NCBI RefSeq assembly: GCF_054482595.1
Contig: NZ_CM137008.1
Reading direction: 5' to 3' (one strand)
Length of the DNA stretch: 64,000 nucleotides
Within the stretch, counting starts at the first letter, position 1. Every line of letters starts with the position of its first letter. A program made the position numbers and the translations under genes. Below are positions 2,450 to 53,149 of the stretch, in pieces. The notes below the pieces were generated by a model. The model was not told the origin of the DNA. It did no database searches and worked only from the letters and a program-made list of their open reading frames with translations.

Positions 2450-6259
<3,810 letters not shown>

Positions 6260-44894: not shown

Positions 44895-47273
44895 ATGTCC
44901 AACAATGGCTCGTCACCGCTGGTGCTTTGGTATAACCAACTCGGCATGAATGATGTAGACAGGGTTGGGGGCAAAAATGCCTCCCTGGGTGAAATGATTA
45001 CTAACCTTTCCGGAATGGGTGTTTCCGTTCCGAATGGTTTCGCCACAACCGCCGACGCGTTTAACCAGTTTCTGGACCAAAGCGGCGTAAACCAGCGCAT
45101 TTATGAACTGCTGGATAAAACGGATATTGACGATGTTACTCAGCTTGCGAAAGCGGGCGCGCAAATCCGCCAGTGGATTATCGACACTCCCTTCCAGCCT
45201 GAGCTGGAAAACGCCATCCGCGAAGCCTATGCACAGCTTTCCGCCGATGACGAAAATGCCTCTTTTGCGGTGCGCTCCTCCGCCACCGCAGAAGATATGC
45301 CGGACGCTTCTTTTGCCGGTCAGCAGGAAACCTTCCTCAACGTTCAGGGTTTTGACGCCGTTCTCGTGGCAGTGAAACATGTATTTGCTTCTCTGTTTAA
45401 CGATCGCGCCATCTCTTATCGTGTGCACCAGGGTTACGATCACCGTGGTGTGGCGCTCTCCGCCGGTGTTCAACGGATGGTGCGCTCTGACCTCGCATCA
45501 TCTGGCGTGATGTTCTCCATTGATACCGAATCCGGCTTTGACCAGGTGGTGTTTATCACTTCCGCATGGGGCCTTGGTGAGATGGTCGTGCAGGGTGCGG
45601 TTAACCCGGATGAGTTTTACGTGCATAAACCGACACTGGCGGCGAATCGCCCGGCTATCGTGCGCCGCACCATGGGGTCGAAAAAAATCCGCATGGTTTA
45701 CGCGCCGACCCAGGAGCACGGCAAGCAGGTTAAAATCGAAGACGTACCGCAGGAACAGCGTGACATCTTCTCGCTGACCAACGAAGAAGTGCAGGAACTG
45801 GCAAAACAGGCCGTACAAATTGAGAAACACTACGGTCGCCCGATGGATATTGAGTGGGCGAAAGATGGCCACACCGGTAAACTGTTCATTGTGCAGGCGC
45901 GTCCGGAAACCGTGCGCTCACGCGGTCAGGTCATGGAGCGTTATACGCTGCATTCACAGGGTAAGATTATCGCCGAAGGCCGTGCTATCGGTCATCGCAT
46001 CGGTGCGGGTCCGGTGAAAGTCATCCATGACATCAGCGAAATGAACCGCATCGAACCTGGTGACGTGCTGGTCACTGACATGACCGACCCGGACTGGGAA
46101 CCGATCATGAAGAAAGCATCTGCCATCGTCACCAACCGTGGCGGTCGTACCTGTCACGCGGCGATCATCGCTCGTGAACTGGGCATTCCGGCGGTAGTGG
46201 GCTGTGGTGATGCAACAGAACGGATGAAAGACGGTGAGAACGTCACTGTTTCTTGTGCCGAAGGTGATACCGGTTACGTCTATGCGGAGTTGCTGGAATT
46301 TAGCGTGAAAAGCTCCAGCGTAGAAACGATGCCGGATCTGCCGTTGAAAGTGATGATGAACGTCGGTAACCCGGACCGAGCTTTCGACTTCGCCTGTCTG
46401 CCGAACGAAGGCGTGGGACTTGCGCGTCTGGAATTTATCATCAACCGTATGATTGGCGTCCACCCACGCGCACTGCTTGAGTTTGACGATCAGGAACCGC
46501 AGTTGCAAAACGAAATCCGCGAGATGATGAAAGGTTTTGATTCTCCGCGTGAATTTTACGTTGGTCGTCTGACTGAAGGGATCGCGACGCTGGGTGCCGC
46601 GTTTTATCCGAAGCGCGTCATTGTCCGTCTCTCTGATTTTAAATCGAACGAATATGCCAACCTGGTCGGTGGTGAGCGTTACGAGCCAGATGAAGAGAAC
46701 CCGATGCTCGGCTTCCGTGGCGCGGGACGCTATATTTCCGACAGCTTCCGCGACTGTTTCGCGCTGGAGTGCGAAGCAGTGAAACGTGTGCGCAACGACA
46801 TGGGGCTGACCAACGTTGAGATCATGATCCCGTTCGTGCGTACCGTAGATCAGGCGAAAGCGGTGGTTGAAGAACTGGCGCGTCAGGGGCTGAAACGTGG
46901 TGAGAACGGGCTGAAAATCATCATGATGTGTGAAATCCCGTCCAACGCCTTGCTGGCCGAGCAGTTCCTCGAATATTTCGACGGCTTCTCAATTGGCTCA
47001 AACGACATGACGCAGCTGGCGCTCGGTCTGGATCGTGACTCTGGCGTGGTGTCTGAACTGTTCGATGAGCGCAACGATGCGGTGAAAGCACTGCTGTCGA
47101 TGGCGATTCGTGCCGCGAAGAAACAGGGCAAATATGTCGGGATTTGCGGTCAGGGTCCGTCCGACCACGAAGACTTTGCCGCATGGTTGATGGAAGAGGG
47201 GATCGATAGCCTGTCTCTGAACCCGGACACCGTGGTGCAAACCTGGTTAAGCCTGGCTGAACTGAAGAAATAA
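44895..47273 (+). CDS. ppsA: phosphoenolpyruvate synthase
   Basis: 792-aa ORF. Confidence 0.97.
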
Positions 47274-47280
47274 AATAAAT

Positions 47281-47305
47281 ACCCGGCGGCGTTTTGTCGC
47301 CGGGT
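47281..47305 (+). terminator. hairpin downstream of ppsA
   Basis: acccggcggcgttttgtcgccgggt inverted repeat just after ppsA stop. Confidence 0.6.
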
Positions 47306-47756
47306 CCATTTCTATATCCCCACCTTTTAACAACCTACTTCAGGCAAACGCGCTCGTGCAATATAAAAAGCTTCCGAGCATCATCTGAATAATTGGCTGG
47401 TGTTCTTTCTGATTTTAATTCGTTTGAGATCTTCTCCACAGAATAATTCTCGATACCATTTTTTCTCAAAGTCGAATGTGACCACTCGTCAATTTCCTTA
47501 AGCATATGCGTAATTTTTTCGTCCAGAGTTCGTTGGATTGCACGAAGTCACTGGCGAGTCCCGTTTTTATACTGTCTTCAACCACAGCATAAAAAGAGAT
47601 ATGGCTATGAAAAATTACCGCACCGTTATTCAGACATAAGCGCAGATTATGTAATTCAGAGAATTTATTCGAACTAAAGCCGATTTTCTGATTTGTCTGG
47701 CTGTACAGAAAACAGGATAAATTCCCTCCACGAGCGGAGGGAAACAGCTACAGGGA

Positions 47757-49163
47757 TTGCATATGAGTTGCTATTTGAAAGTCCTGATTTGTGCGATTGT
47801 CGCACTCGCTATATGGTTTTCCCCCGTCCCCGACGGGTTAACACCCTTAACCTGGCACATTCTGGCAATATTCATCACCACTGTGGTGGCGTTTATTCTG
47901 CAACCGTTGCCGGTAGGCGCTATCGCGTTAATAGCCATCAGTTTTATTATGCTTACCGGCATGATGAAAACCAGCGAAGCCTTAAAAGGTTTCAGCAGCA
48001 CCACGGTATGGCTTATTGTCGCCGCATTCCTGTACGCGAAAGGATTCATCAAAACGGGGTTAGGACGACGTATCGCCTATTTACTGATTCGCGGATTTGG
48101 CGGCAGCTCGTTGCGTCTGGGTTATACCTTAGCGCTAAGTGATATGATTATCGCGCCCGCAACGCCATCAAACACAGCGCGAGCAGGGGGGATTTTGTTC
48201 CCGATTGTTCGCAGTGTCTCTAACAGCTTTGGATCTGAACCGGATCAAGGGCCGCGTAAAATCGGCGCTTATCTGATGCAGACGGTGTTCCATTCCAACT
48301 GTCTCTCATCCTCGATGTTTATGACGGCCAGCGCGCCAAATGCGCTAATTGTATCTCTGGCGGCCAGCACCTTATTTGTTGATATCTCATGGGGGATGTG
48401 GACGCTAAGTGCACTGGTACCGGGCATTATCGCTTTTATCACTATGCCGTTGGTCATTTACAAACTTTACCCGCCAGAGATCAAAAAGACGCCAGAAGCC
48501 AAAGCGTTGGCACAGGAAGAACTTATCAAAATGGGGCCGGTAACCCGTGATGAGCGCGTGACGATTGGCATTTTCCTGCTTTCATTATTGGCCTGGAGTA
48601 CATCGAAATGGACTGGCCTGGATGCGACGGCTGTCGCGCTTTCCGGCGTCTGTTTAATGTTGATGACCCGGATTATCACCTGGCAGGATGTGCAGTCAGA
48701 GAAGGGGGCCTGGGACATTCTGGTCTGGCTGGGAGTCATGATCTGTATGGCAGATAAGCTCAATCAGCTTGGCCTGTTCAAATGGTTTGCCGTCACAACC
48801 TCGGCGCTGTTCACCGGCATTCCCTGGGAAATAACACTGACGGTTTTGCTGATAGTTTACTGCTATTCCCACTATTTCTTTGCCGGAAGTACGCCGCATG
48901 TAGTGGCGATGTATGCCGCTTTTGGCAGCGTCTCGGTTGCTGCAGGCGCACCGCCGATGATGGCAGCTCTGTCACTGGCGTTCGTCACTAACCTGATGAG
49001 CGGCATTTCGCATTATGGCAACGGACCCGCAGTGATCTATTACGGCGCAGGCTATGTCTCGCAACGAGAATGGTGGCGGCTGGGCTTTATCGTCATGTTG
49101 TTGAACATTGTCATCTGGTTCGGACTGGGGGCGGTGTGGTGGAAAATTCTTGGCCTGTGGTAA
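47757..49163 (+). CDS. DASS-family (divalent anion:Na+ symporter / CitT-TtdT-like) transporter
   Basis: 468-aa polytopic ORF with SNTA motifs (PATPSNTARAG); true start may be ATG 47763 (spacing to aggg); family call from motif recall only. Confidence 0.7.
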   Translation: MHMSCYLKVLICAIVALAIWFSPVPDGLTPLTWHILAIFITTVVAFILQPLPVGAIALIAISFIMLTGMMKTSEALKGFSSTTVWLIVAAFLYAKGFIKTGLGRRIAYLLIRGFGGSSLRLGYTLALSDMIIAPATPSNTARAGGILFPIVRSVSNSFGSEPDQGPRKIGAYLMQTVFHSNCLSSSMFMTASAPNALIVSLAASTLFVDISWGMWTLSALVPGIIAFITMPLVIYKLYPPEIKKTPEAKALAQEELIKMGPVTRDERVTIGIFLLSLLAWSTSKWTGLDATAVALSGVCLMLMTRIITWQDVQSEKGAWDILVWLGVMICMADKLNQLGLFKWFAVTTSALFTGIPWEITLTVLLIVYCYSHYFFAGSTPHVVAMYAAFGSVSVAAGAPPMMAALSLAFVTNLMSGISHYGNGPAVIYYGAGYVSQREWWRLGFIVMLLNIVIWFGLGAVWWKILGLW

Positions 49164-49198: not shown

Positions 49199-50158
49199 AT
49201 GAACTTAAAAGATATTCAGGTGGCGATCGTCGGCAAATTAAGCGACCGCTTAATGGCTAAAGTTGAATCTACCTTCACCGCATATCGCCTGTGGGAACTG
49301 ACCGACGCAGACGCTTTTTACACGCAGATCGCGCCGGATATTCAGGCGCTGGTGACCAGTGGTAATCCGGTAATGGGAGCTTCTCGGGCGCTCATTGAAA
49401 AATTTCCGAATCTGAAGATTATTGCCAGCAACGGTGTGGGCTATGACCCTATTGATATCGTGGCAGCAAGGGAGCATGGCGTTATCGTCACCAACACCCC
49501 TGGCGTGCTTAATGATTGTGTTGCAGACATTGGCATGGCGTTGTTACTCAATGTTGCCCGACGTATTAACATTGCCGATCGTTATGTTCGTGACGGCCGT
49601 TGGCCAAACGAAGGGCGTTTCCCGATGGCGACGAAAGTGAGTGGTAAGCGTTGCGGAATTGTTGGTCTGGGGAACATTGGTAACGCTGTAGCCCGCCGTG
49701 CAGCAGCATTTGAAATGGAAATTCACTATTTCGACCCAAAACCGCATAACAAACCTGGATGGACGGCGCATGATTCGCTGGTTTCTCTGGCGCAAGCGGT
49801 GGATTTCCTCGTTCTGACGCTGCCAGGCGGGGCAAGTACACGCGGCGTTATTGACAAAACTGTGCTGCAGGCTCTGGGGGGGACCGGGCATTTGATCAGT
49901 ATTTCCCGGGGTTCAGTGGTGAACGAAACTGATCTGATTGATGCTCTGCAAAATAACATAATTGCTGGTGCGGCACTGGACGTTTATGCCAACGAACCAC
50001 ATGTGCCAGAACAATTAATGTCGCTGGATAACGTTGTCCTTACGCCACATATCGCCAGTGGTACGAGCGAAACGTTTAATGCGATGGCGGATTTGGTTTT
50101 TGATAACTTACAGGCTTTCTTTAGCGGACAGCCAGTTATTACCCCTGTTACTCAATAA
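49199..50158 (+). CDS. D-isomer-specific 2-hydroxyacid dehydrogenase family protein
   Basis: 319-aa ORF with NAD-binding GIVGLGNIG and C-terminal catalytic TPHIAS region; RBS aagga upstream. Confidence 0.75.
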   Translation: MNLKDIQVAIVGKLSDRLMAKVESTFTAYRLWELTDADAFYTQIAPDIQALVTSGNPVMGASRALIEKFPNLKIIASNGVGYDPIDIVAAREHGVIVTNTPGVLNDCVADIGMALLLNVARRINIADRYVRDGRWPNEGRFPMATKVSGKRCGIVGLGNIGNAVARRAAAFEMEIHYFDPKPHNKPGWTAHDSLVSLAQAVDFLVLTLPGGASTRGVIDKTVLQALGGTGHLISISRGSVVNETDLIDALQNNIIAGAALDVYANEPHVPEQLMSLDNVVLTPHIASGTSETFNAMADLVFDNLQAFFSGQPVITPVTQ

Positions 50159-50168
50159 GGCGGAAAAT

Positions 50169-50648
50169 ATGATTTATGGTGATATCACTTATCTTAGTGA
50201 ACAACAAAAACGAACATTTCATCCTGTCATCGCTCGTGTCATTGAGTATCTTTCACAACATGATCTGAATAGTGTTCCTGTAGGGGAGAAGGTTTTTATT
50301 CAGGATGACTCAATTTTTTATACCGTGGTTGAACCGATGACTAAACCACTACATGAATGCCGACCAGAAGTTCATCGTAAATATCTTGATGTCCATTTCT
50401 TAATTGCCGGAGAAGAGCGGGTTTGTGTGGATTTTGATGATGGAGAAAACTCGGTTGTAGAAAGCCACCTGGGCGACCGTGACGTTATTTTTTATGCTGA
50501 TGAACGTATTAATGATCGGATAATCACGTTGACACCAGGACAGTTTGTGGTGGTCTTCCCGGAAGAGGTACATCGGGCATGTTATAAAGTCGATAACGTG
50601 GAGAAAATCAAAAAAACAGTCGTGAAAATCGACATGAGTCTATTATAG
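50169..50648 (+). CDS. YhcH/YjgK/YiaL (DUF386, NanQ-like) cupin-fold protein
   Basis: ORF 50034..50648; start placed at ATG 50169 just after the dehydrogenase stop; resembles YhcH by recall (LIAGEER, PGQFVVVFPEEVH, IKKTVVKI). Confidence 0.6.
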   Translation: MIYGDITYLSEQQKRTFHPVIARVIEYLSQHDLNSVPVGEKVFIQDDSIFYTVVEPMTKPLHECRPEVHRKYLDVHFLIAGEERVCVDFDDGENSVVESHLGDRDVIFYADERINDRIITLTPGQFVVVFPEEVHRACYKVDNVEKIKKTVVKIDMSLL

Positions 50649-50660
50649 GTGGAGCTGGTT

Positions 50661-51404
50661 ATGACAAAAATTGCCCTGGTGACAGGGGGAAGTAAAGGTA
50701 TCGGCTACGCGGCAGCAAGGGCGCTCTATGACATTGGATATACTGTTATTGTTGCCGCGCGTAACGAAGAAACCTTACAGCAATGTGCACAAGAATTAGC
50801 CAAGGAACGCTTTATTCCTCTGGTTGCTGATGTAACGGATGAGTCCGCTGTCGTTGCACTATTTGCCGAGATTAAGGCTCGTTTTGGTCGACTGGATCTC
50901 TTGTTCAATAATGCGGGCAATAATAGTCCGGCAAAAAGTATTGAAGAGGTTGAGTTTACTGAGTGGATACGCGTATTTAACGCCAATATTCACTCGACAT
51001 TTTTGTGTTCGAAAGAGGCGATTAAAATTATGAAAGCGCAGCAGCCAATGGGAGGACGTATTATTAACAATGCGTCGATTTCCGCACTGACGCCGCGCCT
51101 CTATACTGCGCCATACACGGCGTCGAAACATGCTGTTACCGGGTTGACCAAGGCCATTTCCCTGGATTGTCGCAAATTTAATATCGCTTGCGGGCAAATT
51201 AATATCGGCAATGCGGAAACGACATTATCGAATCGGATGCGTAAGGGCGTTTATCAGGCAGATGGCGCTATTAAAGCGGAAGATATGATGAATGTTGCTG
51301 ATGTTGCAGCAGCCATTCAGATGATGGCCCAATTGCCAGTAACCACGAATGTGCTGGAAATAACGATTATGGCAAATAATATGCCATATGTCGGACGTGG
51401 TTAA
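50661..51404 (+). CDS. short-chain dehydrogenase/reductase (SDR)
   Basis: ORF 50649..51404; ATG 50661 preceded by aggtggag; TGGSKGIG cofactor motif, NNAG, catalytic Y-x3-K (YTASK). Confidence 0.8.
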   Translation: MTKIALVTGGSKGIGYAAARALYDIGYTVIVAARNEETLQQCAQELAKERFIPLVADVTDESAVVALFAEIKARFGRLDLLFNNAGNNSPAKSIEEVEFTEWIRVFNANIHSTFLCSKEAIKIMKAQQPMGGRIINNASISALTPRLYTAPYTASKHAVTGLTKAISLDCRKFNIACGQINIGNAETTLSNRMRKGVYQADGAIKAEDMMNVADVAAAIQMMAQLPVTTNVLEITIMANNMPYVGRG

Positions 51405-51417
51405 TCGGGATTGAATA

Positions 51418-51442
51418 AAGCACCTTGCGTATAAGGTGCTTT
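51418..51442. terminator. bidirectional hairpin between SDR gene and fadK
   Basis: aaagcaccttgcgtataaggtgcttt inverted repeat flanked by A/T runs between convergent genes. Confidence 0.7.
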
Positions 51443-51454
51443 ATTATTTATGAC

Positions 51455-53149
51455 TTATGCCTCAACGCATGATTGTTCCAGCCGTTGAACAATATCTTTC
51501 CGTAACAAAAACTTTTGTATTTTACCTGAGGCAGTACGCGGTAGTTTTTCGATTACCACGATATGTTCAGGATATTTATATTTTGCGACCCGTTTACGGC
51601 TAAAAAAAGCCACCACCTCTTCCAGCGATAATGAATGATGCGGTGCTTTCAGCACGACATAAGCGCATGAACGTTCACCTAAGCGTTCATCGGGCATTGC
51701 AACCACACAAGCATCGTGAATTTTAGGATGCTGTAATAAAATATCTTCCACTTCACGGCTGCTAATATTTTCGCCGCCGCGGACAATAATATCTTTCTTG
51801 CGCCCGGTTATTTTTATATAGCCAGCCTCATCCATGCGGCAGAGATCGCCGCTGTAATACCAGCCTTCTTCATCCATGGCACGGGCGGTTAATTCAGGTT
51901 CATCAAAATACCCCATAAACACATTGGGGCCACGCGAGGCTTCTTCACCTTCGCAACCTGGCGGTAAGGTCTTGCGTGCGTCATCGACCACTTTAATCTC
52001 TACACCTGCGGCAGCGTAACCATCGGTGTGCATAAAGCGCGACAAAGGATCATCGAGATTCACCACCGCATGCGGCGAACTTTCTGTGGAACCATAAACA
52101 CTTAATAATTTAATGCCGCGCTGCTGGCATTCACGCGCCACTTTTTTGGGGATTGTGGTACCGCCGCAAAGAAAGAAGCGCAGCGCTGAAAGGTCTGCGG
52201 GTTGTTTCTCTAGTAAATTCAAAAGATCATAGACAAACGGCGTTGCGCCGAGCATACAGGTGCAACGCTGCTGCTCAAGCAGCGCGAGACACGCATCAGG
52301 AGTGAAAATATCTAACAACACGCTGCGAGCGCCAATTAAGAATGGTGCCGTTACGCCATGCAGAAAGCCCGTTGCGTGGCCGAGTGGCGCAGGCATCATA
52401 AAGACATCCTGCCAGGTCAGATTCAGCCGCGCGCAATAAGCCCGCTCACTGGCGAGAATATTGTTATGCGTTAGCATCACGCCCTTTGGCAGACCCTCGG
52501 TTCCGGAGGTAAACAGCACCGCAGCTAATTCATCGCCGTGGGTCGTTATCGCCGTGGTCAGTGGGGTATTGTCGGCGATAATCTGACTTAATGAGAGGGA
52601 AGAGGTGGCGGGAGCCAGTTTGTCCACGCCGACAATTTGTTGTAGTTGTGGAAGCTGATTTTGCAGCGGCAGGATTAAATCTACCGGACGCGTTTGTTTA
52701 AACAACGTCGGTGCAAAGAACATTTTTGCCTGACACTTATTGAGCACCCACACCAGTTCTGCTTCCCGCCAGGAAGGCAACAGCGGCACGGAAACCGCAC
52801 CGATTTTCAGGCAGGCAAGATAGATAACGGTAAATTCACACCAGCCTGGCAGTTGAAATGCGATGCGATCGCCTGATTCAATACCCTTCGCTAACATCCA
52901 GTTTGCCAGACAGCTCGCGGCGTGATCGAGCGCGCTATAGGTGTACGATGCTCCATGATTATCGACCACGGCAATTTTGTCTGGCATCGCACGAGCGGTC
53001 TGCTGCCAGTAATCGGCCAGCGAAGCATCGCCCCATAGCCCTTGCTGACGATACGCCGCACGACGTTGTTCGTTAAACGTTAATGTCACTTTCATTTTGG
53101 ACTCTCGAAACAGAACATCAGGCCCGAGATGCGGGCCTGTGGGATGCAT
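51455..53149 (-). CDS. fadK: short-chain acyl-CoA synthetase
   Basis: 564-aa ORF, AMP-binding family; true start may be the internal MKVTLTF. Confidence 0.9.
   Translation of the reverse strand: MHPTGPHLGPDVLFRESKMKVTLTFNEQRRAAYRQQGLWGDASLADYWQQTARAMPDKIAVVDNHGASYTYSALDHAASCLANWMLAKGIESGDRIAFQLPGWCEFTVIYLACLKIGAVSVPLLPSWREAELVWVLNKCQAKMFFAPTLFKQTRPVDLILPLQNQLPQLQQIVGVDKLAPATSSLSLSQIIADNTPLTTAITTHGDELAAVLFTSGTEGLPKGVMLTHNNILASERAYCARLNLTWQDVFMMPAPLGHATGFLHGVTAPFLIGARSVLLDIFTPDACLALLEQQRCTCMLGATPFVYDLLNLLEKQPADLSALRFFLCGGTTIPKKVARECQQRGIKLLSVYGSTESSPHAVVNLDDPLSRFMHTDGYAAAGVEIKVVDDARKTLPPGCEGEEASRGPNVFMGYFDEPELTARAMDEEGWYYSGDLCRMDEAGYIKITGRKKDIIVRGGENISSREVEDILLQHPKIHDACVVAMPDERLGERSCAYVVLKAPHHSLSLEEVVAFFSRKRVAKYKYPEHIVVIEKLPRTASGKIQKFLLRKDIVQRLEQSCVEA

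Follow-up and report, generated by a model that had tools for sequence, protein, structure and literature searches.

Genomic context of the interval

The window analyzed here is a 64,000-nt stretch of contig NZ_CM137008.1 (NCBI RefSeq assembly GCF_054482595.1). Within it, ppsA ends at 47273 and a four-gene operon begins with an ATG at 47763, leaving a gene-free interval of 489 bp. The operon, all on the plus strand, encodes a DASS-family anion permease (47763-49163; Pfam Na_sulph_symp, 6.5e-158, and PGAP annotation of matching genomes), a 2-hydroxyacid dehydrogenase (49199-50158; Pfam 2-Hacid_dh_C), a YhcH/DUF386 protein (50169-50648; Pfam DUF386), and an SDR (50661-51404; Pfam adh_short). PGAP places the permease start at ATG 47763 in matching genomes, not at TTG 47757, and the ATG is favored because the TTG is not kept in a cross-genus alignment. 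An earlier, sequence-only reading had remarked that the region carries no regulator gene of its own; Pfam domains and PGAP annotation of matching genomes bear this out for the island.

The left boundary of the island is the ppsA intrinsic terminator (47281-47305, plus strand; by terminator scan, an 11-bp stem with 8 GC pairs). A 32-bp match to the terminator region is found in 1948 genomes, the terminator being common to E. coli without the island, and divergence from the strain B sequence begins directly 3' of GTCGCCGGGT. The leader between terminator and permease is present in 114 of 5426 complete E. coli genomes, and none of these 114 has an annotated feature in it. Carriers of the operon include E. 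coli IAI39 and CE10 as well as other Escherichia lineages. Its earlier description as an inserted operon is doubtful: E. whittamii and two other Escherichia lineages have the same island at the same ppsA-fadK site, with third-position divergence of at most 19%, and the island is probably an old possession of the genus that most E. coli lack. A literature search for it found no paper.

Coding potential of the interval

All four features originally singled out, namely an ORF gap, a pair of reverse-strand ORFs, a 12-codon ORF, and a hairpin, are present in the sequence. No ORF of at least 60 aa lies inside the interval, as had been stated; the largest is 56 aa (47335-47505, minus strand). A 149-aa out-of-frame ORF with a TTG start (47693-48142) begins in the leader and is mostly inside the permease gene.

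The 56-aa ORF and a second minus-strand ORF of 39 aa (47466-47585) are in different frames, within stop-free stretches of 70 and 93 codons. Two adjacent open stretches do exist on the reverse strand, as described, but their lengths are not beyond chance: among 2000 dinucleotide shuffles, the longest stretch reached at least 93 codons in 11.7% and the second-longest at least 76 codons in 5.5%. The second-longest stop-free stretch of the actual interval is on the plus strand.

The sequence-only reading had suggested that these fragments might be either chance or what is left of the 3' end of a lost gene; in the latter case the leader would be mostly the remains of a frameshifted minus-strand pseudogene. 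The two stretches do lie next to each other on one strand, with a T6 homopolymer at their junction; between 47300 and 47599 this strand is rich in purines; and in Escherichia sp. E4385 a T7 at the junction gives a continuous 83-aa ORF that was annotated as a hypothetical protein. The homopolymer is T6 in four other lineages, however, and the intact ORF was rejected as support, since it depends on a T7 vs T6 homopolymer difference in an assembly full of split genes; the T7 may be a homopolymer error. A composite reverse-strand peptide matched only same-locus Escherichia ORFs among 5.8 billion proteins, and an exhaustive HMMER scan of 1.84 billion representatives added just three marginal matches (E 1e-4 to 5e-4), to large multi-stretch proteins. 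The same peptide matched no family in a Pfam scan and nothing in a plasmid tblastn search. Substitutions show no third-position excess in the frame of the fragments (by codon position, [5,5,3], [3,3,4], [5,4,6], and [7,9,6] in four pairwise comparisons). With lengths reached by 5-12% of shuffles, and with homology to intergenic DNA of other genera over most of what would be its coding region (below), a minus-strand pseudogene is highly improbable.

Homology to the surroundings of a dehydrogenase gene

In UBA3516-type genomes a 313-aa 2-hydroxyacid dehydrogenase (DH) gene of 939 bp precedes the same permease, and the DH-permease order is also found in L018, L021, and L022; relatives with this arrangement include UBA3516 and three metagenome or read-assembly contigs. 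The pair is divergent from malZ in UBA3516, and apparently in L022 as well. In UBA3516 it lies between proY and malZ, where ORF sizes and order fit phoB-phoR-brnQ-proY, then permease-DH, then malZ, of which malZ alone was confirmed by BLAST.

By blastn, positions 250-338 of the leader match L008 4893-4980 (E 2e-8), ending 2 nt beyond the DH ATG, and positions 408-490 match L008 5918-6001, beginning one base after the DH stop codon; the two blocks bracket the DH ORF (4976-5917) exactly. In window coordinates, 47395-47611 is homologous to the region upstream of the DH gene in other Enterobacteriaceae, and 47681-47762 to the DH-permease spacer of the DH-bearing relatives. The upstream homology reaches to 47395 in semi-global alignments with UBA3516 (z = 8.3), C. 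youngae (z = 6.5), and L022 (z = 5.8). Its first part, 47395-47522 (plus strand), would be the upstream half of an ancestral malZ<>DH intergenic region, and includes the cross-genus blocks ATGTGACC (47470-47477) and GCATATGCG (47502-47510). More distant permease homologues, L010 (77%) and L024 (71%), have upstream regions unrelated to the leader.

The malZ promoter is MalT-dependent, with a MalT box consensus of GGGGA(T/G)GAGG. In a MAFFT alignment, the MalT box of the E. coli malZ promoter (GGGGATGAGG) aligns with GGGGTTGAGA in UBA3516, GGGGGTGAGA in L022, and CGTTTGAGAT in the leader (47421-47431, plus strand). The distal leader thus resembles malZ-proximal intergenic DNA of UBA3516 and L022 position for position, MalT-box position included, but its box is decayed (~5/10 matches) and no malZ is adjacent; it is a relic and no longer a working site. 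A sensitive blastn search with the UBA3516 malZ<>DH intergenic region against E. coli found only malZ coding sequence. The remaining distal spacer (47306-47394, no strand assigned) is found in Escherichia only and contains the 3' part of the reverse-strand 56-aa ORF. Its first 61 positions, 47306-47366, have marginal similarity to the 5' end of UBA3516 malZ (z = 2.25, p = 0.046), and E. coli malZ shows no similarity to them; on this slight hint, the spacer may preserve traces of a minus-strand malZ, from its 5' UTR and first codons.

C. youngae has no DH gene upstream of the permease, and keeps the last five DH codons plus the stop (ATAACCC-GGTTGTATAA vs ATCACCCCGGTTGTTTAA), a 3' relic that favors loss of DH over gain. 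In Escherichia, 69 nt (47612-47680, plus strand) found in that genus alone take the place of the 939-bp gene body. Local alignments of 47610-47682 with four DH genes, the DH of the island itself, and the Citrobacter gap were not significant (p 0.14-0.94), so that the case for a deletion stands on the collinear flanks and on the 3' relic in Citrobacter, and E. coli itself contributes no remnants to it. The leader is best read as a fossil of the malZ<>DH-permease arrangement from which the DH gene was lost; the homologies are direct observations, and from them we infer the direction of the change. The Escherichia and Citrobacter losses may have been a single event or separate ones. A scar of some kind had been suggested from the outset. 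One does appear to be present, but it would be that of a lost upstream dehydrogenase gene and a malZ-side control region carried along with it, not the insertion scar that was proposed.

The 12-codon ORF is exactly as first described (47601-47639, plus strand; ATG 47601, second ATG 47607, stop 47637-47639). In the alignment with UBA3516-type genomes, its second ATG falls on the start codon of their upstream DH gene, and it is preceded by what would be a relic ribosome-binding site, AGAGA (47595-47599, plus strand). It is kept in five Escherichia lineages as M-x-MKNY(R/H)TVIQT, with the three bases before the second ATG hypervariable (GCT/GCC/GAT/GTC/ACC), and has no counterpart in C. youngae. 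Repeats GTTATTCAGA and GTAATTCAGA are found inside the 69-nt segment. A TGCGTAATTTTT / AAAAATTACCGCA pair is also associated with the Escherichia-only stretch of the leader.

Conservation along the leader

Variable columns were counted across five Escherichia lineages, with four-fold degenerate sites of the flanking genes in the same genomes (36.7% variable) as a yardstick. The distal part, 47306-47494, drifts fairly fast: 20% of its columns vary (21% in 47306-47394, where MOD1-EC7003 has a 14-nt indel), and one isolate has an IS5-family insertion at 47493/47494. In 47495-47700, only 5.3% vary (Fisher p 7e-23), about the level of first and second positions of protein-coding sequence; 47514-47543 is invariant, and 47601-47700, which includes the 12-codon ORF, has 6 variable columns of 100 vs 37% at four-fold sites. 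The last stretch, 47701-47762, is at 14.5%. Taken together, 47495-47762 has 7.5% variable columns vs 37% at four-fold sites, and is under strong purifying selection. The low diversity of 47495-47700 could in principle come partly from localized recombination, not selection.

The suggestion that the region is the promoter and leader of the operon is supported by this pattern, the proximal ~270 bp being far more conserved than synonymous sites. The opposite explanation, that the interval has no function and is just the scar of an insertion or deletion, its features due to chance, draws on the distal 190 bp, which drifts at about half the four-fold rate, ordinary for intergenic DNA, and tolerates both the indel and the IS5-family insertion; the ORF fragments and the single hairpin are also each within reach of chance by shuffling. 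It does not account for the contrast between 47495-47700 and the four-fold sites, for several blocks kept across genera, or for a hairpin with compensatory change (below). It is contradicted for the proximal 270 bp and very unlikely for the interval as a whole, but is a fair description of 47306-47394.

Candidate promoter

A candidate promoter core (47529-47573, plus strand) is marked by a block and a spacing conserved across genera. It includes a dyad, TTCGT (47529-47533)-N8-ACGAA (47542-47546), overlapping a conserved block, ATTGCACGAAGTC (47537-47549), which is followed after an 18-nt gap by a -10-like TATACT (47568-47573). Block, gap, and TATACT are kept in Escherichia, C. youngae, and UBA3516; L022 has a gap of 19 nt and is without the left dyad arm. 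In the DH-bearing genomes TATACT is 33 nt before the DH start codon, correctly placed ahead of the DH ribosome-binding site. As a sigma-70 promoter it would be a weak one: TATACT (5/6) has only AAGTCA (3/6) at 17 nt, for 8 of 12 consensus positions together, and a sigma-70 scan called no plus-strand promoter in the interval. With this weak, uncalled match, the candidate promoter would probably need an activator. Transcription would start near 47580, giving a 5' UTR of ~180 nt.

Other readings of the conserved blocks were rejected. In a LexA box, TACTGT-N8-ACAGCA (47570-47589), the core CTGT-N8-ACAG varies between alleles and genera: most of the 114 carriers are like the EC0585-type allele, in which CTGT is replaced by CTAT; the right arm is CAA or TAG in C. 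youngae and UBA3516; and L022 has neither arm. Sigma-54 and full CRP sites, looked for by eye, are likewise not kept across alleles and genera.

The stem-loop upstream of the permease

The homologue of the DH-permease spacer (47681-47762, plus strand; by blastn to L008) contains a stem-loop flanked by two motifs. The stem-loop (47722-47743, plus strand) has an 8-bp stem, TTCCCTCC (47722-47729) and GGAGGGAA (47736-47743), and a 6-nt loop, ACGAGC, and ends 19 nt before the permease ATG. A perfect 7-bp stem had been described here; the hairpin is there, but it is slightly larger than that. A perfect 8-bp hairpin is found in 5.4% of shuffles, making it by itself only marginally unusual, and its significance comes from cross-species comparison.

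The covariance analysis proposed in the sequence-only reading finds the hairpin conserved with compensatory changes in nine distinct homologues. In these nine sequences, which represent ~4 lineages, 94.4% of stem cells pair and three of the eight stem pairs change on both sides. Slid controls gave 40-65% pairing and no compensatory pair, except for one control (+3) with two, and 8 of 500 shuffles reached the covariation score. The loop varies freely, with eight different loops in nine sequences. The hairpin is part of the MFE structure of all nine homologues and is the sole RNAalifold consensus structure, where its covariation term is small (-0.25). Within a single genus, MOD1-EC7003 has a C-G to T-A double change in the stem. 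Most E. coli carriers (82 of 114) have an allele that differs from the window at two positions; where its sequence was read (EC0585, E. whittamii), one change is A>G in the loop and the other gives an internal T.T mismatch in the stem. The commonest E. coli allele having this mismatch, a perfect stem is evidently not required. On this comparative evidence the hairpin is a real structured element, in which base pairing is maintained and the loop is free.

Motif 1, GTACAGAAAACAGGAT (47703-47718, plus strand), is identical in eight of the nine distinct homologues. Motif 2, TACAGGGAT (47749-47757, plus strand), includes the Shine-Dalgarno sequence AGGGA (47752-47756), 6 nt before the ATG. In L022 the motifs have diverged to GTACAGAAAAGCAGAGGAAT and TACAGGGAA, respectively. 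GGA is present in both motifs of all nine homologues, within ACAGGAT (47712-47718) and ACAGGGAT (47750-47757) in the window.

A sensitive blastn search with 47695-47770 matched a single site in each of the 114 island-bearing genomes and in no other genome searched; a REP/BIME or other dispersed palindromic repeat was rejected on the basis of this single copy. At a permissive threshold, Rfam 15 yielded no credible family (best 15-19 bits vs gathering thresholds of 37-50; E 0.1-8.6), with none of the matches on the hairpin. A terminator-like call on the minus strand (47743->47722, tail TTTATCCTGT) is made in Escherichia only; in C. youngae and UBA3516 the minus-strand T-run is 9 nt away from the stem. 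A cis-antisense RNA ending at the hairpin was rejected, its U-rich tail being Escherichia-specific.

At the DNA level, the palindrome TTCC-N14-GGAA might instead be an operator for a dimeric transcription factor, with the flanking motifs as protein sites or an internal promoter. Its outer TTCC/GGAA positions are nearly invariant, its spacing is constant, a co-evolving regulator could account for symmetric changes, the allele with the T.T mismatch is tolerated, and GTACAG and CTACAG, 46 bp apart, make up a direct repeat. The palindrome is, however, ~140-165 bp downstream of the sole conserved promoter-like block (~1 kb downstream in DH-bearing genomes), with no conserved -10 or -35 element nearby; the double change in MOD1-EC7003 is more simply explained by base pairing; and no version of the locus has a regulator gene beside it. 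An operator is unlikely.

At the RNA level, the sequence-only reading had suggested an attenuator, in which the 12-codon ORF and the hairpin would decide on termination before the permease. In favor of such a device, the short ORF has an SD-like AGAGA of its own, stands ahead of a stable hairpin, and is kept in five Escherichia lineages. The plus-strand stem is followed by ACAGCTACAGG, though, with no U-tract, and on that strand the scan for terminators detects the ppsA terminator alone. The ORF stops 82 nt upstream of the stem, and its peptide, MAMKNYRTVIQT, has no run of a regulatory amino acid. No alternative pairing is significantly stable (the fold of 47583-47775 has z = -0.89 vs shuffles), and the hairpin is kept in C. 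youngae and in DH-bearing genomes, which have no such ORF. Attenuation is extremely unlikely here.

Proposed function and origin

Of the interpretations considered, we favor, with moderate confidence, that the interval is both the control region of the permease operon and its long 5' leader, and that its length is a product of history and not of design. The Escherichia and Citrobacter islands would have carried the malZ<>DH intergenic region along and lost the DH gene. Five remnants would be left in the leader: a decayed malZ-side portion, now drifting; the DH promoter block (ATTGCMCGAAGTC, N18, TATACT), which selection still maintains and which probably depends on an activator; the former ribosome-binding site of DH and its start codon, the latter now heading a 10-12 codon ORF; the 69-nt Escherichia-specific filler, strongly conserved nonetheless; and the old DH-permease spacer.

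Homology, selection, and covariation are direct results of the comparison; the promoter, the transcription start, the direction of gene loss, and the way in which the stem-loop acts are proposals. The stem-loop most likely acts in the mRNA, near the ribosome-binding site, and not as a terminator. The stem would draw together two single-stranded motifs, ACAGGAU and ACAGGGAU, the second being the Shine-Dalgarno sequence. The preferred possibility is an element next to the ribosome-binding site that controls translation of the permease or stability of its mRNA; a CsrA-type dimer clamping both GGA sites is one candidate, and a 5'-proximal protective hairpin left after processing is another.

A more ambitious version can be imagined, in two parts taken together. 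The hairpin and its two ACA-GGA motifs would be an undescribed, dedicated post-transcriptional switch for the permeases of this DASS family (for example a dual-site clamp by CsrA or another RNA-binding protein), and the ~200 bp of the Escherichia-only stretch 47495-47700, including a 10-12 codon ORF born from the start codon of a dead gene and an inverted TGCG(G)TAATTTTT pair flanking the promoter, would have gained a new regulatory function of their own. This is unlikely; the control region and leader as described above are preferred.

If correctly read, the case shows one way in which a long bacterial leader can originate: an operon loses its first gene; the promoter, ribosome-binding site, and intercistronic spacer left behind pass to the next gene; and selection then retains the whole relic. 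The finding has no bearing on a long-standing open question. In practical terms, a covarying hairpin and ~200 bp of constrained non-coding DNA front an uncharacterized acid-transporter operon of a minority of E. coli, and offer handles for finding its inducer and its regulator.

Comparison with known systems

As a relic of gene loss, the leader has two expected properties: its two blocks are collinear with the sequence before the start and after the stop of the relatives' gene, and Citrobacter keeps the last five codons of the lost gene. It differs in that the 69 nt at the E. coli deletion site have no similarity to the lost gene and yet are strongly conserved in the genus, which a plain scar does not explain.

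In leader-peptide attenuators of the trpL, thrL, and pheL type, too, a short upstream ORF with a ribosome-binding site comes first, and a hairpin then precedes the first structural gene. The present leader is unlike them in having no U-tract, antiterminator pairing, or regulatory codon run, in the 82 nt between ORF and hairpin, and in that other genera keep the hairpin without the ORF.

CsrA-repressed leaders are of the glgC, cstA, and pgaA type, and the SELEX consensus for CsrA binding is RUACARGGAUGU. The permease leader has two conserved GGA motifs after ACA: ACAGGAU, and UACAGGGAU, which fits the 9-nt core UACARGGAU and shares bases with the Shine-Dalgarno sequence. The motifs are 38 nt apart, and the 22-nt hairpin between them would shorten the effective distance. 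Unlike in the known leaders, the GGA motifs are beside the hairpin and not in its loop, and the likeness is one of sequence pattern only; CsrA is a candidate by analogy, and the likeness may reflect nothing more than a good ribosome-binding site.

Stem-loops close to a ribosome-binding site or between cistrons can set mRNA stability or translation, the ompA 5' hairpin and hairpins between cistrons being examples. The leader hairpin is like these in being short and GC-rich, with a variable loop and no U-tract, in its position just upstream of the Shine-Dalgarno sequence, in being conserved by structure and not by sequence, and in having lain between two cistrons in the ancestral arrangement. 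It is unlike them in being limited to one small clade of Enterobacteriaceae and in belonging to no Rfam family. It adds modestly to an established kind of element and does not found a new one.

The island and its distribution

The window comes from Escherichia coli. The leader, the gene-free interval between the ppsA terminator and the permease ATG, is preceded by ppsA (44895-47273) with its strong terminator (47281-47305), and followed by four genes on the same strand as ppsA: a DASS-family anion permease (47763-49163), a D-2-hydroxyacid dehydrogenase (49199-50158), a YhcH/DUF386 protein (50169-50648), and an SDR oxidoreductase (50661-51404). Convergent fadK lies beyond the SDR end of this operon. 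Strain B has 56 bp between ppsA and fadK, with one terminator common to both. The leader is present in 114 of 5426 complete E. coli genomes, IAI39 and CE10 included, and contains no annotated feature in any of the 114. The island (operon plus leader) is found at the identical site in E. whittamii, Escherichia sp. E4385, and Escherichia sp. MOD1-EC7003, with third-position divergence of up to 19% among Escherichia lineages, so it has probably been in the genus for a long time rather than being inserted recently. Strains with and without the island have different final ~15 codons of fadK (window 51404-51500 compared with 5000-5100 of the island-free sequence L003), and a bidirectional terminator belonging to the island (AAAGCACCTT...AAGGTGCTTT) follows the SDR gene; presence or absence of the island therefore goes along with replacement of the fadK 3' end, unlike a clean insertion.

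By protein search, permease relatives with 71-99% identity are confined to a very small enterobacterial clade, the next nearest being at 55-60%. Where the source of the latter is named, it nearly always belongs to the Negativicutes (Sporomusa, Anaerospora, Sporolituus), which hints at an unusual origin for the permease. Directly upstream of the 71%-identical homologue (L024, 3-503) is the C-terminal part of a gene that, from its translation read by eye, looks like an enolase-superfamily dehydratase; if so, an acid sugar or hydroxy acid would be a fitting substrate for the transporter family.

Features of the interval

All the features described in the sequence-only reading are found. There is no ORF of at least 60 aa; the reverse strand has ORFs of 56 and 39 aa in different frames, with stop-free stretches of 70 and 93 codons; a 12-codon ORF is at 47601-47639; and the hairpin (47722-47743), given as 7 bp, has an 8-bp stem and a 6-nt loop, with 19 nt between it and the permease ATG at 47763. 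Each alone is little beyond chance: of 2000 dinucleotide shuffles, 11.7% equalled the longest open stretch, 5.5% equalled the second-longest, and 5.4% held a perfect 8-bp hairpin.

The suggestion that the reverse-strand stretches are a decayed gene is unsupported. A composite peptide bridging the T6 run between the two fragments matched only two of 5.8 billion sequences, both same-locus Escherichia hypothetical proteins; an exhaustive HMMER pass over 1.84 billion representatives added only three marginal matches, and there were zero Pfam and zero plasmid matches. Between-lineage substitutions are even across the three codon positions of the fragment frame. By these searches and the flat codon-position pattern, the fragments are not recognisable as a dead gene. 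The T6 run is T7 in the E4385 assembly (L004, GCA_004745385.1), giving an 83-aa ORF; four other lineages have T6. This assembly also has many split genes around the locus (DUF386 in three pieces; dehydrogenase, ydiV, ppsR, and fadK shortened), and its leader differs by single bases in homopolymers. Sequencing errors are the probable cause, and the "intact" 83-aa ORF is therefore not to be trusted.

Conservation along the leader

Variable columns were counted in an alignment of five Escherichia lineages over 6.6 kb. They make up 36.7% of four-fold degenerate sites in five flanking genes and 25-29% of all third codon positions. Within the leader, the share is 20% at 47306-47494, 5.3% (11/206) at 47495-47700 (Fisher p 7e-23 vs. 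four-fold sites), and 14.5% at 47701-47762, where the changes are mostly within or beside the hairpin. On these figures, function is clear for the proximal ~270 bp, and any constraint on the distal ~190 bp is weak. An IS5-family insertion at 47493/47494 cuts off the distal part in one E. coli isolate (GCA_001277695.1; L005, 1-100). The insertion point is the border between the drifting and conserved parts; 516 genomes have the element in more than one copy. A highly conserved, Escherichia-only part of the leader (47625-47680) contains direct repeats at 47625 (GTTATTCAGA) and 47651 (GTAATTCAGA), with a weaker one at 47665 (TTATTCGAAC).

Relatives with an upstream dehydrogenase gene

A scan of one genome per species placed close permease relatives in four further places besides E. 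coli. C. youngae has this four-gene operon too, with a divergent GNAT gene upstream. In UBA3516, an Enterobacteriaceae MAG, the permease (92% identical) is directly preceded by a gene for a 313-aa 2-hydroxyacid dehydrogenase (DH), 48% identical to the island's own dehydrogenase. The DH-permease order also occurs in metagenome contigs L018 and L021 and in read-assembly contig L022 (permease 90% identical).

The leader aligns with UBA3516 in two blocks that exactly bracket the DH ORF: leader 250-338 (window 47523-47611) matches 88 bp of UBA3516 that stop 2 nt beyond the DH start codon (E 2e-8), and leader 408-490 (47681-47763) matches the stretch that begins with the base following the DH stop codon and runs to the permease ATG. 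The 69 nt that stand in place of DH in E. coli (47612-47680) are not similar to any DH gene. By semi-global alignment, upstream homology reaches 47395 (z = 8.3 for UBA3516, 6.5 for C. youngae, 5.8 for L022). ORF sizes and order in UBA3516 are compatible with phoB-phoR-brnQ-proY | permease-DH | malZ, of which malZ only is confirmed by BLAST; the region upstream of DH there is therefore a divergent malZ<>DH control region. The MalT box of the E. coli malZ promoter (GGGGATGAGG) aligns with GGGGTTGAGA in UBA3516 and GGGGGTGAGA in L022, and the same position in the window has a decayed CGTTTGAGAT (47421-47431). The case for 47306-47366 as a relic of the first malZ codons is marginal (p 0.046). C. 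youngae has no upstream DH, yet the last five DH codons and stop remain, with a 1-nt deletion, which argues that the DH-less state arose by loss.

In the alignments the DH start codon falls on the second ATG of the 12-codon ORF (47607), and the DH Shine-Dalgarno sequence on AGAGA (47595-47599). This mini-ORF is present in all five Escherichia lineages (M-x-MKNY(R/H)TVIQT), and no equivalent is found in C. youngae. Variability within the near-invariant stretch peaks at the three bases just 5' of the second ATG, as a Shine-Dalgarno-spacer-ATG arrangement would show. We interpret the mini-ORF as a translation start handed down from the lost gene.

Candidate promoter

A block ATTGCMCGAAGTC (47537-47549) and TATACT (47568-47573), separated by a fixed gap of 18 nt (19 nt in L022), form the best candidate promoter, conserved in four lineages, 33 nt before the DH start codon where DH exists. 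Its -35 match is poor (3/6), and a consensus scan reported zero plus-strand promoters in the leader. It would probably need an activator; no activator gene is found in the island or beside the locus in the UBA3516 arrangement. Transcription would start near 47580, for a 5' UTR of ~180 nt.

On either side of the candidate promoter, at about -67 and +36, stand the arms of an inverted pair, TGCGTAATTTTTTC (47507-47520) and GAAAAATTACCGCA (47609-47622), whose perfect core is 9 nt long. Each arm is within the near-invariant stretch: the first has no variable columns in the five Escherichia lineages, and the second has one (47620, the mini-ORF R/H codon). These could be an operator pair, or could have arisen by chance, the DNA being AT-rich. 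A 12-nt AU-rich inverted repeat, TTTTTATACTGT-N8-ACAGCATAAAAA (47564-47595), overlaps the -10 element and contains a LexA-box-like core, CTGT-N8-ACAG (CTAT in the EC0585-type allele); it is not conserved in other genera.

The hairpin

The 22-nt stem-loop is at equal distance from the permease ATG in all nine distinct homologous sequences. Covariation was scored on their gap-free alignment, with slid controls and 500 shuffles. Pairing is found in 94.4% of cells (40-65% in slid controls), three of eight pairs have changes on both sides (C-G to U-A twice, G-C to U-A once), and just eight shuffles attained the covariation score. The loop differs in nearly every sequence, and RNAalifold gives the hairpin as the only consensus structure. 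The stem is perfect in the window; 82 of the 114 E. coli carriers have an allele with two differences; in those that were read, EC0585 among them, one difference lies in the loop and the other leaves a T.T mismatch inside the stem. The element is single-copy and has no Rfam match. There is no U-tract on the plus strand, so the hairpin is rejected as a terminator and the proposed attenuator is unsupported.

Flanking motifs GTACAGAAAACAGGAT (47703-47718) and TACAGGGAT (47749-47757), the second containing the Shine-Dalgarno sequence, do not vary among eight of the nine sequences; those of L022 have diverged somewhat. Both include ACA...GGA, and the second matches the core of the CsrA SELEX consensus, a lead only. 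A compensatory stem change occurs within Escherichia (MOD1-EC7003), where the upstream gene was already lost; maintenance of the stem after DH loss indicates that its function would concern the permease rather than the end of the DH gene.

With moderate confidence, then, the region can be read as a regulatory leader put together from remains of an older malZ<>DH-permease arrangement, holding a small RBS-proximal predicted RNA hairpin supported by covariation. Both earlier proposals were partly right: for a promoter plus leader, the proximal ~270 bp is strongly conserved and the promoter is an inferred candidate; for a scar, the leader blocks bracket a DH gene that was probably lost, not a decayed reverse-strand one. 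The operon is a rare accessory one, and leader and hairpin would together belong to a type of element already known.
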